Positions 22,238 to 27,013 of a stretch of DNA of 64,000 bases are shown one piece after another. Numbering within the stretch: position 1 is the first letter of the stretch; every line of letters starts with the position of its first letter. Source of the stretch: Escherichia phage vB_EcoM-UFV09; sequence record MZ291552.2; one strand, 5' to 3'. A model generated the notes under the pieces. The model worked only from the letters and a program-made list of their open reading frames with translations, was not told where the DNA came from and searched no databases. The position numbers were made by a program, and so were the translations under genes.

Positions 22238-22241
22238 CAAT

Positions 22242-22270
22242 GGGGACCGAAAGGTCCCCATATTTTTATT
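22242..22270. terminator. Bidirectional hairpin terminator between gene 54 and the convergent minus-strand ORF
   Basis: ggggacc-gaaa-ggtcccc followed by a T tract. Confidence 0.65.
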
Positions 22271-22556
22271 TACGGAATGAAATAAAAGCAGCAACTGAAG
22301 CAACAGAGGTTTCTTCAATATAAACCTCAATTTTTACCGGAGCTTCTGACTCAAATTTACCTGTTACTACACCTTGGAAAATACTTTCAGTCTGTTCTGG
22401 CTTTGAAAAATTTTCAGAAGGAAAAATTCCAAACTTTTTATCGGTTCCGAAAATTTTAATAAATTCATCATAAACTGCTTCATTGAAAGCGTTATCAGCG
22501 GGAATAACGCCTTCAACGACGAGTTCTTGACCTAAAAAGCGCAAAGAAGATTTCAT
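22266..22556 (-). CDS. Hypothetical protein downstream of the Alt paralog
   Basis: 96-aa ORF preceded by an early-promoter and RBS cassette. Confidence 0.6.
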   Translation of the reverse strand: MKSSLRFLGQELVVEGVIPADNAFNEAVYDEFIKIFGTDKKFGIFPSENFSKPEQTESIFQGVVTGKFESEAPVKIEVYIEETSVASVAAFISFRK

Positions 22557-22563
22557 TTTGTGT

Positions 22564-22617
22564 TCCTCATGTTATGTCAGTAAGATTATTATAACACAAC
22601 ACGAGGGACTTGTAAAC
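22564..22617 (-). promoter_or_regulatory. Sigma70-type early promoter and leader: -35 TTTACA, 17-bp spacer, -10 TATAAT, then GAGGA RBS (copy 1 of a 54-bp exact repeat)
   Basis: Minus strand reads GTTTACA-17 nt-TATAAT; the identical 54-mer recurs at 37872-37925. Confidence 0.65.
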
Positions 22618-24674
22618 TACATTTTGAACTTTTTAGACATTCCGTTGATGTTAACCAAAGAAGCTAAGATTTGAGAAACTTCGTTTTCCTCTTCTTTTGA
22701 TTCTTCTACAAGGAATTGATTAAATCCAGCCATTGGACGAACTTCACCAGTTTCCATCAGATGGTCGCCATCATATACTGATTCTTCTAATTGTTCAGAA
22801 GGAGGAACGATTGTACCTTCGATTAGATACTTGTTATAAGCAGTTTCTTTCATCATGTACGTACTTACTTTATTAATCTTCAGTAAAATTCCACGCGGCA
22901 AAATAACTTCAGCTTCGGATGGAAATCCTGATAAATGACCTGGAACGATAACTTTAACTCGTTCAGCTCCTTTAATTACCATACCTACATTAGTTTCAGC
23001 GTCTTCATTCGCATATGTAGAATGACTACCCATATGCATTAAATCTTCAGCATCAACTGAACCTTCTCCTTCACCAGAAAATACTGCTCCGGAATCATCT
23101 AAGGCCATATAATTTTTACCATATTCACCGAAGATATTTGGCTTGAGTGAAGTAGATACAAAGTTCTTGAAATAGAACATTTTATTTTCTATATTATGAC
23201 GTAAAGTTTTAAAGGTAACTTCTTGCCCACGATAAAGAGTAGTTCCTGGAGGAAGAACTGAACCTTTAGAAAATGCAGAATCCAGCGTCTCAATATGTTT
23301 AATAGCTCGTTCCATATATTCTTCACGGGTAGAATCAGGTTTACCTAGAAGGAACGAGTTCATTTCAACATATGAATCTGCGCAATAATCTTCAATTACA
23401 TCAGACTCAGCCTGAGTTAATCCTTTTGGAGTTACTTCAGTGCTTGCATATTCATATGCCTGAGCAGCAGATTCATCAATTAATTTATAAATTCCATTCA
23501 TTACAAATTGAATAATAGCTGTCTTTTCATCTGGTGTAGCTTTAGAACCTTTAACTAAATCATTGACAATTTTCTTAATAACATCAAAGCTATTAGAAAT
23601 ATTAATGTCAGCAAGATCGCTTAAAATTTTATCAGTTTTATAATCAAAGAATTCTTTATTCTTTAAATATTCTTGAGAACCTTGATATGTTATATCGCTC
23701 TGCAGCTTGATAGATGGATCGCGTAAACGTGCATGGGCCAATGCAATATGATTTCGGAAGCTTTCGAGTTCATAATCACTAGATTTAAAACGAGAAGCAC
23801 TTCTCATACCACCGATAGCTCCTTTGCTAAAGTTTGAACCAACCTGAATAACGCCAGAGTTCATTGGTCCTTCTGCTTTATATACCGGAACTTTAGATTC
23901 AAACTCTTGATATTTCTTAGCAGCGAAGCTATCACCCTGAAGTGAAGCATCAACAGTAGAATATTGAGCTTGTGCTGCTAATCGACGACTAATTTTAGTT
24001 TTCTGAATAACAGCTTGATCCGTGCGCTTATCATTTTCTAAAGCAATAGAAGCAGCAACAGCAACAGCTTTAGGAACAGCATTACCTGTTTTAACGTCTA
24101 CATAAACATCACCAACCTTTGATTCAACTTTTGTGAATAACTCGGTTGAAATAGGAGGTACACCTGGAATGTCTTCTAAATTGGCATTTTTACGGTAAAC
24201 CATAATATATGCGTACTTTTTATCATAATCCCAGATTTCCTTTAAAAGAACATATCGACCTGCTCCTTTAGTACGTACTAAACGGTCAGCAATAACTTGC
24301 ATTTGCCGAGCAGCGCCATTTGTTTTACTTTTTAGTACGCGGAATAAGCATGCATCAATTTTATACTGTTTCATTGTTTGAAGAGCAGTATCAAAAACAG
24401 CATTAATGACGCCAATTGGATTTCCACCCAAGTTTTTAAGCTTAACTAATGATAGTTTCTCATTAACGCCTATCATTACGATATGCATCATTTTGTCGCC
24501 TGGCTTAACGTTTTTATTCGTATCACCGCCAGAGGTGTATGTACAAAATCTAAATCCAGGAAGCACGCTTTCTTCACCTGCTTGAATAGCAAAAATTTGA
24601 GGTATTTTATGCTTAGGATTTAAGTTAACAACCGGCGCCGAAGCGCCGTCAAATAATTCTGTAATAAGTTCCAT
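22617..24674 (-). CDS. Alt-family ADP-ribosyltransferase paralog (internal head protein-like)
   Basis: 685 aa; N-terminus MELITELFD shared with the adjacent Alt; C-terminal R (LYRGQ), STS (NFVSTSL) and E-x-E (EAEVILPRG) motifs. Confidence 0.75.
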   Translation of the reverse strand: MELITELFDGASAPVVNLNPKHKIPQIFAIQAGEESVLPGFRFCTYTSGGDTNKNVKPGDKMMHIVMIGVNEKLSLVKLKNLGGNPIGVINAVFDTALQTMKQYKIDACLFRVLKSKTNGAARQMQVIADRLVRTKGAGRYVLLKEIWDYDKKYAYIMVYRKNANLEDIPGVPPISTELFTKVESKVGDVYVDVKTGNAVPKAVAVAASIALENDKRTDQAVIQKTKISRRLAAQAQYSTVDASLQGDSFAAKKYQEFESKVPVYKAEGPMNSGVIQVGSNFSKGAIGGMRSASRFKSSDYELESFRNHIALAHARLRDPSIKLQSDITYQGSQEYLKNKEFFDYKTDKILSDLADINISNSFDVIKKIVNDLVKGSKATPDEKTAIIQFVMNGIYKLIDESAAQAYEYASTEVTPKGLTQAESDVIEDYCADSYVEMNSFLLGKPDSTREEYMERAIKHIETLDSAFSKGSVLPPGTTLYRGQEVTFKTLRHNIENKMFYFKNFVSTSLKPNIFGEYGKNYMALDDSGAVFSGEGEGSVDAEDLMHMGSHSTYANEDAETNVGMVIKGAERVKVIVPGHLSGFPSEAEVILPRGILLKINKVSTYMMKETAYNKYLIEGTIVPPSEQLEESVYDGDHLMETGEVRPMAGFNQFLVEESKEEENEVSQILASLVNINGMSKKFKM

Positions 24675-24677
24675 GAT

Positions 24678-26771
24678 TTATCCTTGAACGAACTTGTAAG
24701 GCATGTTTGTAATATCTATGCAAGACGCAATAATTCCAAGAGATGATTCTACTTTCTGTTTAATATTTGATGAAACAAATGATGCAAAGTCAACTCTGTC
24801 TTCTATTTCAATATCACCTGTCATTGCAACCAATTCACCAGTTTCCATTAAATGGTCTCCATCATAGATTACCGATTCGGTGAGCTCTTCCGTGGTCATA
24901 ACTTCAGCTTGAATGAGTTTTGTATTATTAGATGTTGTTCCGTCATTATTAGAAGCATCGATTATTTTATTAACTTTGACCATCAATCCACGCGGTAGAA
25001 TAACTTCAGCTTCTGTTGCTATTCCGAGACTTCCTGGATATACAACATTAACTTTATGAGCTCCATCAATTGCCCATCCTATTTGAACTTTAACATATTC
25101 AGGATTTTCTTTATACGCTCTTATTTCGTTTGGATTAATAGTTATTCCTTCTTCATTTTTATCAACTGTTAATTCATTGCGAGCTTCTGGTTCTAAAAGA
25201 CCAATACCAGCATGTGTGATTCCAAAACGTCCAAAAATGATAGGAGTTAAAGAAGTAGATACAAAATTTCTGAAGTAGAACACTTTATTTTTAACTAACG
25301 CTTCATATATAGGAGCAGTCATACTTTGAGCACGATAAACTGTAATGCCTTCTGGTATACGGTCACCATTTTCAAAAGCTGAATCTAAGTTATTTATAGC
25401 AGATTCAATTTCTTTTTCACTCATTACATCGTATCGTTCTGGATTGTAACGACCTAAAAGAAGATTATTGATGTCAGTATATCCTGAACCGCAATATTCT
25501 CTAATGCCACGCTTTTGTGATGGAGTATATTTAGAACCATCGCGGGCAATAGTAATATCAATCATTGGACCAGCACCAATTCCAGAAAAACTGTAAATCA
25601 TTCGTTTGAGGAATTTAGTTTTTGCTGCGTTCCAGGAATTTTTAGTTATTTCTTCCCAGACTTCATCTGGTTGTCCTTTACGATTTTTATTATGATTAGC
25701 AAGCCATTTATCTTTATAATCTTCAAAGAATTGATTTACAGCTGCTGCGTATTTCTCTAAACATTTTATTGAAGTAGTTGGTTCATTTTTAATTGCATTA
25801 AAAATTACTTCTTTAATTTTTTCTGAAACTTCACCGACTTGACTCATTGGAAAGAATTTATAATCATAGTGAAGTTCATCTGCCGTTCCTTCAGCAATAA
25901 TTTTTGCTGCCTTTGTTTTAGAAGCTAATGAATTAATTCCAATTTTCATTTCTTCTGCTTCGGGAATTAAAGGTGCAGTAGCTGGTTTATTAAAATTAGC
26001 TGCTGTAGATTCATACTTCTGGAATAATTCACTTTCAAATCTAGAAGATTCCAATGACTGACTTTGTGCAATTGCTCTACGGGAAATTTTAACTTTAACG
26101 ATTACAGCTTGGTCAGAACGTTTATCATTTTCTTGCGCAATAGATGCTGCAATTGCTTCATTTTTAGTTACTTGAGCTCCAGTATCTTTATTGATATAAA
26201 CATCACCGACCTTCGATTCAACTTTAGTAAAGAGTTCAGTGCTAATTTCTGGAACTCCTGGAATGTCTTCTAATGATACATTTTTGCGATGTATAAGAAT
26301 ATATGCATACTTTTTATCGTAATCCCAGAGTTCCTTAAGAAGGACGTATCTGCCACCTGAACGACTACGGATAAGTCTATCAGCAATAACTTGAATTTGT
26401 CGAGCTTGGCCAGCAGTTTTAGACTTAAGAATACGAAGCATGCAGGCATCAATTTTATATTGACGCATCGTTTGCATTGCAACAGTAAAAACTGAATTGA
26501 TATAATTAATTGGGCTTGGACCAAGACCTTTTAATTTAGCAATTGAGCCTTTAGCAGTTAATGTAAAAGGAACAATATGCATCATTTTATCGCCCATCTT
26601 TAAATCGCGATTAGTATCACCTCCAGATGTATAGGTACATAAACGAAAGCCTGGTTGTTCAATTGCATCATCAACATGAACTGAAAAAATTTGTGGTATT
26701 TTCTTCTTTGGATTTAAGTTTGTAATCGGAAGAGTAGTATCTTCGTCAAATAATTCTGTAATAAGTTCCAT
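24678..26771 (-). CDS. alt: ADP-ribosyltransferase Alt (packaged, injected RNAP-modifying enzyme)
   Basis: 697 aa; N-terminus MELITELFDEDTTLPITNL recognised as T4 Alt-like; VYRAQ, NFVSTSL and EAEVILPRG motifs; position next to gene 30. Confidence 0.8.
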   Translation of the reverse strand: MELITELFDEDTTLPITNLNPKKKIPQIFSVHVDDAIEQPGFRLCTYTSGGDTNRDLKMGDKMMHIVPFTLTAKGSIAKLKGLGPSPINYINSVFTVAMQTMRQYKIDACMLRILKSKTAGQARQIQVIADRLIRSRSGGRYVLLKELWDYDKKYAYILIHRKNVSLEDIPGVPEISTELFTKVESKVGDVYINKDTGAQVTKNEAIAASIAQENDKRSDQAVIVKVKISRRAIAQSQSLESSRFESELFQKYESTAANFNKPATAPLIPEAEEMKIGINSLASKTKAAKIIAEGTADELHYDYKFFPMSQVGEVSEKIKEVIFNAIKNEPTTSIKCLEKYAAAVNQFFEDYKDKWLANHNKNRKGQPDEVWEEITKNSWNAAKTKFLKRMIYSFSGIGAGPMIDITIARDGSKYTPSQKRGIREYCGSGYTDINNLLLGRYNPERYDVMSEKEIESAINNLDSAFENGDRIPEGITVYRAQSMTAPIYEALVKNKVFYFRNFVSTSLTPIIFGRFGITHAGIGLLEPEARNELTVDKNEEGITINPNEIRAYKENPEYVKVQIGWAIDGAHKVNVVYPGSLGIATEAEVILPRGLMVKVNKIIDASNNDGTTSNNTKLIQAEVMTTEELTESVIYDGDHLMETGELVAMTGDIEIEDRVDFASFVSSNIKQKVESSLGIIASCIDITNMPYKFVQG

Positions 26772-26794: not shown

Positions 26795-26802
26795 TATTTA
26801 TA
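26795..26802 (-). promoter_or_regulatory. T4-type late promoter box (TATAAATA on minus strand) upstream of alt
   Basis: TATTTATA on plus strand, about 24 bp upstream of the alt start. Confidence 0.45.
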
Positions 26803-26827
26803 AAATTAAAGGCCCGAAGGCCTTTAA

Positions 26828-27013
26828 TTAATAGAGAGCTAAAAGAGTACGATATACTTCAAACTTTGGACCTTTTTCATATGGATCAAATCTTTCCGTG
26901 AATTCATCATATGCTAGTTTATCTGGGAATTCAAGAATAACCTGCGATACCGCAGTGGAAACATCTCCACCTTCTTTTTGAGCCACGACAATTGTTTCTA
27001 AGTAAGCTTTCAT
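26828..27013 (-). CDS. Hypothetical small protein between gene 30 and alt
   Basis: 61-aa ORF overlapping the gene 30 stop. Confidence 0.55.
   Translation of the reverse strand: MKAYLETIVVAQKEGGDVSTAVSQVILEFPDKLAYDEFTERFDPYEKGPKFEVYRTLLALY

Follow-up and report, generated by a model that had tools for sequence, protein, structure and literature searches.

Tandem Alt-family ADP-ribosyltransferase genes in Escherichia phage vB_EcoM-UFV09: a probably non-redundant pair, reduced in phage T4

A 64,000-nucleotide stretch of Escherichia phage vB_EcoM-UFV09 (sequence record MZ291552.2), referred to below as the window, carries two adjacent minus-strand genes for ADP-ribosyltransferases (ARTs), named AltA (upstream) and AltB (downstream) in this analysis. 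Each gene encodes a complete Alt-family protein in which the R-S-E triad is intact, and it is very probable that the two products are functional, non-redundant paralogs of phage T4 Alt encoded in one late operon. An earlier note, made from the sequence of the window, had proposed two tandem Alt-family paralogs at 22617-26771, and this span proved to be exact. In the list of open reading frames (ORFs), AltA occupies 24678..26771 (minus strand, 697 amino acids [aa]) and AltB 22617..24674 (minus strand, 685 aa), separated by a gap of 3 nucleotides (nt). Both match the Pfam family PF03496 (ADPrib_exo_Tox; AltA 126.9 bits, AltB 73.5 bits, gathering cutoff 23.4), and phrog_802, 'Alt-like RNA polymerase ADP-ribosyltransferase', aligns with residues 1-696 of AltA over profile positions 2-674 of 674 (E 2.4e-272) and covers residues 1-685 of AltB (E 4.5e-257). 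The N-terminal module PF26846 (Tevenvirinae_ADPRT) was assigned indirectly, from precomputed matches on P0001, which shares 98% identity with AltB, and on every full-length relative; P0008 and P0010, both N-terminally truncated, lack it. A search of NCBIfam gave no model matching AltA or AltB.

The first residues of both proteins are MELITELFD, and the two sequences are 42% identical across their full length (BLASTP, E 2e-160), far above chance. The identity is unevenly distributed among the regions, numbered here by AltA residues:

N-module, residues 1-238: 68%
centre, residues 239-412: 16%
ART domain, residues 413-627: 35%
C-terminal tail, residues 628-697: 42%

The earlier note had described the first ~220 residues as closely shared; the extent of the shared part holds (residues 1-238), but not its closeness, 68% being moderate. 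The strong divergence that it saw in the central regions is evident. Every catalytic motif that it quoted was located in both copies. In AltA, R480 lies in YRAQ, S505-T-S507 in FVSTSL and E587-A-E589 in EAEVILPRG; in AltB, R482 lies in YRGQ, S507-T-S509 in FVSTSL and E587-A-E589 in EAEVILPRG. Across a 23-sequence family alignment reaching down to 43% identity, residues R482, S507, S509, E587 and E589 of AltB are invariant. Neither a broken triad in the second copy nor identical target-recognition regions, the two outcomes that the note had set against its own proposal, was found: the triad of AltB is unbroken, and the two centres diverge.

The structure models of AltA and AltB have a common layout, with an alpha/beta N-module (about residues 1-200, extended to 238 by conservation), a long helical centre, an ART domain and a tail of low confidence. 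The fold of the N-module may be GNAT-like. The corresponding segments of the window are as follows.

26058..26771, minus strand: AltA N-module, residues 1-238, an alpha/beta domain that includes the gp21 site ITE-6
24891..26057, minus strand: AltA exchangeable body, helical centre (239-412) and ART domain (413-627)
25332-25334 (R480), 25251-25259 (S505-S507) and 25005-25013 (E587-E589), minus strand: AltA catalytic codons
24681..24875, minus strand: predicted AltA C-terminal propeptide, residues 633-697, after LTE-632, which aligns to the LTE-619 of T4 mapped by mass spectrometry
23961..24674, minus strand: AltB N-module, residues 1-238, including ITE-6; every A/B chimera crossover falls here
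22791..23960, minus strand: AltB body, helical centre (239-420) and ART domain (421-628), with an aromatic residue (SGFPSEAE) in the ADP-ribosylating toxin turn-turn (ARTT) loop
23229-23231 (R482), 23148-23156 (S507-S509) and 22908-22916 (E587-E589), minus strand: AltB catalytic codons
22620..22781, minus strand: predicted AltB C-terminal propeptide, residues 632-685, after LEE-631

Confidence is low from residue 652 on in the AltA model, and in the AltB model the predicted local distance difference test score (pLDDT) is below 50 at residues 630-662. Compared by Foldseek, the ART domains of both models resemble Vis, C3, CDTa and VIP2 with a probability of 1.00. Structure prediction of the catalytic domains, a check suggested in the earlier note, gave ART folds for both, and AltA and AltB are accordingly modeled as carrying the C3/VIP2/Vis type of the fold. 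A sequence search returned no solved Alt structure; AltA gave weak matches to CDTa and iota Ia, and AltB gave none at E ≤ 0.01. The insert between the STS and E-x-E motifs differs in both length and sequence between the two proteins, that of AltB being large, acidic and without counterpart in solved toxins.

The record of phage T4 lists alt (682 aa) followed by two small ORFs, alt.-1 (61 aa) and alt.-2 (67 aa), which it notes as an 'old duplication' of the first part of alt. These align to residues 1-54 and 62-116 of AltB at 89-90% identity (54/61 and 60/67), as against 36/61 and 38/67 identities with AltA and 57-59% identity to AltA or T4 Alt. At the DNA level, alt.-1 and alt.-2 are 95.4% identical to AltB across 348 nt, with the same flanks. 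The lesion in the T4 counterpart of AltB consists of a 1-nt frameshift and a deletion of 1,690 bp:

22637..24326, no strand assigned: 1,690-bp segment deleted in T4, AltB nt 349-2038, with a 9-nt overlap at the junction

The final 12 residues of T4 alt.-2 are an out-of-frame readthrough of the last ~20 nt of AltB and of the alt.-3 promoter. Because of these identities and the mapped frameshift and deletion, AltB is, on alignment, the intact form of alt.-1 plus alt.-2, and T4 carries the wreck of this gene. The earlier note could not say whether its second copy was an already catalogued T4 ORF next to alt, a doubt that the 89-90% match settles.

The part of AltB that is deleted in T4 was found at ≥90% nucleotide identity in 401 phage records with at least 80% coverage, T2 and T6 among them. 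Possession of both genes is therefore usual, and T4 departs from the rule. The cluster of AltB at 90% identity has 772 member sequences, and the AltA and AltB ORFs are both intact in T2, T6, RB33, PYPS2T and Sfk20. Among AltB orthologs, the ratio of nonsynonymous to synonymous divergence (dN/dS) is 0.03-0.06 at a dS of 0.10-0.25; AltB is under strong purifying selection and is kept in most Tequatroviruses.

The order of the two genes is old. In phage JS10 (EU863409), which we take to be a Dhakavirus, and in a diverged metagenomic contig (L016), the arrangement is ligase, (alt.1), an Alt protein of 694-697 aa, a 3-nt gap, an Alt protein of 694-707 aa, DUF5498 and gene 54. In the window, JS10 and L016 alike, the upstream protein always belongs to the clade of AltA and T4 Alt and the downstream protein always to the clade of AltB. 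Identity between ART domains is 57-93% for members of one clade and 34-41% for members of different clades; for the centres it is ~15% across clades. In B-clade proteins the residue four places ahead of the first catalytic glutamate is aromatic (SGFPSEAE, TEYSEEAE), whereas A-clade proteins have no aromatic residue at this ARTT position (LGIATEAE, LAPSNEME). The ARTT loop adds to substrate recognition in C3-like toxins.

The N-module and the remainder of the protein have had different histories. The N-module tracks the phage, with 65-68% identity between the copies in one phage and 42-46% across genera, and the body tracks the clade: the upstream Alt of JS10 (L017 2913..4997) is 93% identical to AltA in the ART domain and 68% in the centre but 46% in the N-module. 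This likeness in sequence points to exchange of an effector body between phage genera. Recent gene conversion was considered as the cause of the similarity of the N-modules and rejected, since synonymous sites between AltA and AltB are saturated throughout (dS ~1-3) and the N-modules themselves have a dS of 1.46 with a dN of only 0.28; the combination of saturated synonymous sites and low dN indicates that their likeness is upheld by selection. Between AltA and T4 Alt, dS is 0.12 in the N-module and 0.07 in the tail, as compared with 1.31 in the centre and 1.24 in the ART domain. A saturated body between young flanks indicates that, relative to T4 Alt, the AltA body has been replaced by recombination, that is, by a cassette swap. 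At a coverage of at least 80%, the centre of the window/T2/T6 type of this A-slot allele is found in 326 phage records and the T4 type in 175, and AltB is adjoined by the window-type allele in some phages and by the T4-type allele in others.

Loss of one body from the tandem pair has also left traces. In phage ECML-134, a single 686-aa gene (L007 3478..5538) joins an A-type head to a B-type body with a crossover at about residues 147-160, and four further single-copy A-head/B-body chimeras (P0003, P0004, P0005 and P0007) have crossovers near residues 54, 110, 192 and 224. All the crossovers lie within the shared N-module, and all have the polarity expected of deletion between direct repeats. 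The A/B chimeras are deletion products of the tandem copies and, as natural domain swaps, show that the N-modules are interchangeable. In phage sutha the second gene has decayed in a third way: AltA is intact and AltB is reduced to a 38-aa ORF (L009 4978..5094) matching its C terminus.

A broader role of the N-module as a general head-targeting adaptor for many effectors was considered but is not supported by a profile scan. Among 1.84 billion proteins, the N-module profile found 74 representatives, in which it is always N-terminal and nearly always joined to an ART or ART-derived body. The sole homolog with a body lacking a detectable ART is P0184 (541 aa). Altered catalytic motifs were seen in some distant homologs: P0182 has LYK and N-x-E, P0188 looks degenerate, and P0187 (1142 aa) has LYK, NAS and D-A-E together with a C-terminal extension of ~640 residues. 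These four proteins could be pseudoenzymes or enzymes with new activities.

T4 Alt is a protein of the prohead core, present in ~40 copies and ejected into the host (PMC9026906), and mass spectrometry has mapped its cleavage by gp21 after ITE-6 and LTE-619 to yield a 68.2 kDa protein (PMC5694885). The mass of mature T4 Alt calculated here is 68.2 kDa, reproducing the published value. The same calculation for the proteins of the window gives:

AltA: gp21 motifs ITE-6 and LTE-632, predicted mature mass 70.1 kDa, isoelectric point (pI) 8.05
AltB: gp21 motifs ITE-6 and LEE-631, predicted mature mass 69.1 kDa, pI 6.86

The shared MELITELFD start, in which the earlier note had seen a motif of the gp21 type, contains the mapped gp21 site ITE-6 of T4 Alt. 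E6 and E631/632 are invariant in the family, and (L/I/M)-x-E occurs at both sites in every lineage examined. Because the gp21 motifs are conserved and the N-module is shared, AltB is likely to be packaged and processed by gp21.

Indications of different functions come from phage Bas37 (KarlGJung, MZ501089), whose Alt (bas37_0033) is 97.4% identical to AltA and whose Alt2 (bas37_0032) is 98.4% identical to AltB. In the transposon insertion data of the HIDEN-SEQ preprint (10.1101/2025.11.20.689424), the reference library had hits at 116 of 164 TA sites in Alt2, classified as 'Intermediate', and at 164 of 179 in Alt, classified as 'Non-essential'; on K-12, the mean insertion count was 44.5 for Alt2 versus 203.6 for Alt. 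Log2 fold changes relative to K-12 were small for both genes on CFT073 (Alt2 0.11, Alt 0.01) and on a further host, taken to be CFE299 (Alt2 0.19, Alt -0.06), but on CFE331 Alt changed by -1.56 (adjusted p 0.00000) and Alt2 by +0.12 (p 0.66) (10.1101/2025.11.20.689424). In the same study, T4 Alt helped evasion of Mokosh type I, and Bas37 Alt could not substitute for it (10.1101/2025.11.20.689424). The insertion data and the Mokosh type I result together suggest that the paralogs, and also the A-slot alleles, are functionally distinct, and they argue that Alt and Alt2 of the Bas37 pair are non-redundant. That the two copies have different targets, as the earlier note had supposed, fits the divergent centres, the different ARTT loops and this lack of interchangeability in a pair 97-98% identical to that of the window. 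The next gene, alt.-3, has its own connection with defence. All T4 mutants that escaped the CmdTAC defence extended the C terminus of Alt.-3 (PMC11618068), and the Bas37 ortholog of alt.-3, bas37_0031, was depleted on E. coli CFT073 (log2 fold change -2.70, adjusted p 0.020; 10.1101/2025.11.20.689424). The alt/alt2/alt.-3 stretch looks like a counter-defence hot spot.

The signals around the pair are consistent with a single transcription unit.

26808..26825, minus strand: G+C-rich hairpin AAAGGCCTTCGGGCCTTT, read directly, between alt.1 and the late promoter; terminator-like, ending the upstream transcript
26795..26802, minus strand: T4 late-promoter consensus TATAAATA, 24 nt upstream of the AltA ATG and directly after the hairpin
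24681..24685, minus strand: AltB Shine-Dalgarno sequence AAGGA, within the last AltA codons, followed by the TAA stop, a 3-nt gap and ATG
22588..22616, minus strand: sigma-70-type promoter TTTACA-17-TATAAT (11/12 match, with TG), directly after the AltB stop, driving alt.-3
22266..22556, minus strand: alt.-3 homolog, 96 aa, DUF5498 (PF17602, E 3e-62), a neighbor gene and not an ART
22240..22261, both strands: bidirectional intrinsic terminator between gene 54 and alt.-3, with a 9-bp stem containing 6 G-C pairs

The hairpin AAAGGCCTTCGGGCCTTT also stands ahead of the first alt gene in JS10 and L016, and a conserved terminator upstream of alt was reported by Nolan et al. in 2006 (PMC1524935). 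The late promoter ahead of the first alt gene is kept as TATAAATA in L016 and as the near-consensus CATAAATA in JS10. In the window, TATAAATA occurs 18 times as against 8.55 expected, and the copy at 26795..26802 is likely to be the promoter for both alt genes. No separate promoter serves AltB. A further TATAAATA at 25391..25398 (minus strand), inside AltA and 717 nt upstream of the AltB start, was considered as a separate late promoter for AltB and rejected as a coding coincidence, since it encodes A-I-N-N and is missing from the T4-type alleles that precede an intact AltB (PYPS2T), from sutha and from JS10. The junction CAAGG(A/G)TAA-3nt-ATG is common to the window, JS10 and L016, and the position of the AltB ribosome-binding site inside the end of AltA makes translational coupling of the two genes probable. 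From these signals we infer one late transcript for AltA and AltB, and the terminator at 22240-22261, the sole strong one of the alt transcription unit, marks its end.

The pair stands at the locus of T4 alt, with genes 29, 48, 54 and alt.-3 on one side and alt.1 and DNA ligase (gene 30) on the other. Over the 4.9-kb alt region, the window shows 100% identity to Escherichia phage vB_EcoM-UFV10 and sibling phages of the genus Tequatrovirus. Matches to this region occur in 543 phage records, of which 356 cover 80% or more of it. The 61-aa alt.1 homolog (26828..27013, minus strand) matches the Pfam family PF24647, 'Phage blade protein' (E 7e-28), and its gene shares 4 nt with the end of that for ligase. 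An E. coli T4-like alt region with 95-99% nucleotide identity was also encountered in PV654520.1, 'Pseudomonas phage vB_PSGBLB0006' (142 kb), for which Pseudomonas aeruginosa is given as the host; this assignment, or the assembly of the record, may be in error.

In the mechanism proposed for a functional, non-redundant pair, the single late promoter upstream of AltA would transcribe both genes, with translation of AltB probably coupled to that of AltA. Each protein would have four parts, the phage-tracking N-module of ~238 residues being followed by the helical centre, the ART domain and a propeptide at the C terminus. On the model of T4 Alt, the two would enter the prohead core, where gp21 would trim them after ITE-6 and after the L-x-E at 631/632, leaving proteins of ~69-70 kDa to be injected along with the DNA. 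In the cell, they would mono-ADP-ribosylate arginines of host proteins in an NAD+-dependent manner, as expected of the E-x-E type, and different sets of targets may be anticipated from the differing centres, STS-to-E-x-E inserts and ARTT loops. The A slot is an exchangeable cassette with T4-type and window-type alleles, the latter common to JS10. The tandem repeat itself is unstable, deletions between the N-modules repeatedly yielding A-head/B-body chimeras, and T4 lost its B body by illegitimate deletion.

A bolder version holds that Alt2 is a second packaged, gp21-processed and injected arginine ART that has its own targets, outweighs Alt in basal fitness and was lost by T4; the chances of this being right or wrong appear evenly balanced. 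If it is true, 50 years of work on T4 cover only half of the injected ART arsenal of a typical T-even phage. The locus would then be a two-slot effector site, in which the B slot is stable and the A-slot body is swapped between genera to match defences such as Mokosh.

Several points weigh against a functional and non-redundant pair. With pLDDT values of 73-74, the structure models deserve medium confidence, and the loops that differ most are those modeled least confidently. Assigning the ARTT aromatic residue a part in substrate choice would carry over to Alt, by analogy, what holds for C3-like toxins. A search of the literature gave no direct evidence of AltB or Alt2 in the virion, of its cleavage by gp21, of its injection or of enzymatic activity. 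The lower number of insertions in Alt2 could reflect toxicity of a truncated Alt2 or uneven transposon insertion rather than loss of function. Co-transcription might also lead one to expect polar effects on Alt2 from insertions in Alt, but the Alt insertions are neutral on K-12. Finally, T4, the chimeras of the ECML-134 type and sutha are all viable after the loss of one or the other body.

This dispensability in nature of either body (T4, sutha and the ECML-134 chimeras) would also suit a simpler role for AltB, that of a redundant back-up or dosage copy that acts on the same host targets as AltA and merely supplies more injected ART. The two proteins do belong to the same family and have in common the triad, the arginine-type E-x-E, the N-module and the processing motifs. 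However, identities between clades of 34-41% in the ART domain and ~15% in the centre, with consistently different ARTT loops, are difficult to reconcile with a back-up, as is the persistence of both lineages together and in an unchanged order in different genera, with saturated synonymous divergence. In Bas37, moreover, Alt2 does not make up for the loss of Alt on CFE331, and insertions in Alt2 are under-represented on K-12 even though Alt is there. Simple redundancy is therefore quite unlikely. It is unlikely, too, that AltB is made late but neither packaged nor injected, acting instead in the producing cell, like a late ModA or ModB, or in head assembly. The fitness cost on K-12 in a pooled lytic assay would equally suit an assembly or late role, and the literature search found no virion proteomics of Alt2; but an unpackaged protein would hardly conserve both gp21 motifs, the invariant glutamates and the whole N-module. 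The A-head/B-body chimeras are viable and common, so that the heads must be interchangeable, AltB has no similarity to ModA or ModB, and the late promoter and the place among baseplate and head genes are those of Alt.

The main substrate of AltB might also be something other than protein arginine, either nucleic acid or NAD-capped RNA that is joined to proteins as by ModB. The R-S-E clade includes ModB, which RNAylates proteins (10.1101/2021.06.04.446905; PMC9503650), and the large acidic insert of AltB is without parallel in solved toxins. Nevertheless, protein is favored as the substrate by the E-x-E motif and by the nearest structural neighbors (Vis, C3, iota/CDTa, VIP2 and SpvB), features of protein-modifying ARTs throughout; the sequence has no sign of nucleic-acid binding, and this alternative is very improbable. 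Least credible of all is the view of AltB as a decaying pseudogene or pseudoenzyme on its way to the T4 state. Most of the gene is indeed gone in T4 and sutha, but all sampled phages with two genes have an intact ORF, with a dN/dS of 0.03-0.06, the triad is invariant, ~400 records retain AltB and the B clade is retained in other genera too; the analysis of selection effectively refutes decay. Two functional, non-redundant paralogs remain the favored explanation.

The pair itself is not new. It is annotated in hundreds of records; the 685-aa gene is labeled 'alt.-2; also similar to alt' in T6 and 'alt.-2' in RB33, the two proteins are named 'ADP-ribosyltransferase Alt' and 'ADP-ribosyltransferase Alt2' in BASEL phages, and many other records have alt_1 and alt_2. 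Duplications of alt paralogs in T4-like phages, namely alt.-1/alt.-2 of T4 and a full-length duplicate in 44RR, were noted in 2006 (Nolan et al., PMC1524935). As a sequence feature the Alt/Alt2 pair was already known, and the link to T4 is stated in the T4 record. A literature search on 'Alt2' together with ADP-ribosyltransferase and phage found no functional study. What is added here is comparative: the T4 lesion, the fixed order of the two clades, the A-slot swap, the A/B chimeras, the conservation of the gp21 sites and the link to the transposon data. Knowledge of injected phage ADP-ribosyltransferases is based almost wholly on T4, which is the reduced case, and a second, strongly conserved enzyme of a different clade is kept in about three quarters of the related genomes in the collection. 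The transposon data hint that Alt2 is less dispensable than Alt on K-12, and A-slot alleles differ in defeating the Mokosh defence. The targets of Alt2 could alter the picture of host takeover and counter-defence by T-even phages, although the importance is modest and the feature an ordinary one.

Among known systems, the closest is T4 Alt itself (gpAlt, NP_049811), a head-packaged and injected arginine mono-ADP-ribosyltransferase whose NAD+-dependent action on RNA polymerase alpha and further host proteins is described in the literature. AltA, its positional ortholog, occupies the same locus, with 237 of the 238 N-module residues and 96% of the C-terminal tail identical, but only 32% of the centre and 66% of the ART domain; AltB is ~43% identical to T4 Alt overall and falls in a separate clade. 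All three agree in length, in the order of their domains, in the triad, in both gp21 motifs (ITE-6 and L-x-E) and in the late promoter. The 'Alt2' proteins of BASEL phages (bas37_0032, bas38_0034, bas41_0031 and bas42_0031) are AltB, being 98.4-99.9% identical, 685 aa long and in the same position, and neither they nor the alt.-2 of T6 and RB33 differ from it in substance. ModA and ModB are, like Alt, phage-encoded R-S-E ARTs that act on host transcription and translation proteins, but unlike Alt they are ~200 aa long, early, unpackaged and without the N-module. The search against T4 alt, its neighboring ORFs and ModA/ModB, proposed in the earlier note, matched the Alt family and alt.-1/alt.-2; a relationship of AltA or AltB to ModA and ModB was rejected, there being no significant similarity (best BLASTP E 0.53 for ModA and 2.2-3.2 for ModB), and the proteins, at 685 and 697 aa, have three extra regions. 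The C3-like and binary-toxin ARTs (Vis, C3bot, iota Ia/CDTa/CPILE-a, VIP2, Certhrax and SpvB) are 15-26% identical to the Alt proteins, which, unlike these toxins, have no secretion or translocation partner and are delivered by ejection from the phage head. Nor is the Alt N-module a second ART-like domain, as is the N-terminal pseudo-ART adaptor of VIP2, iota Ia and CDTa. The MuF-fused or 'polyvalent' head-packaged effectors follow the same logic as Alt, a head-associated N-terminal part carrying a C-terminal enzyme to the next host (PMC5512222, PMC9503650). They differ in that the Alt N-module is not MuF and is found almost only with ART or ART-derived bodies.

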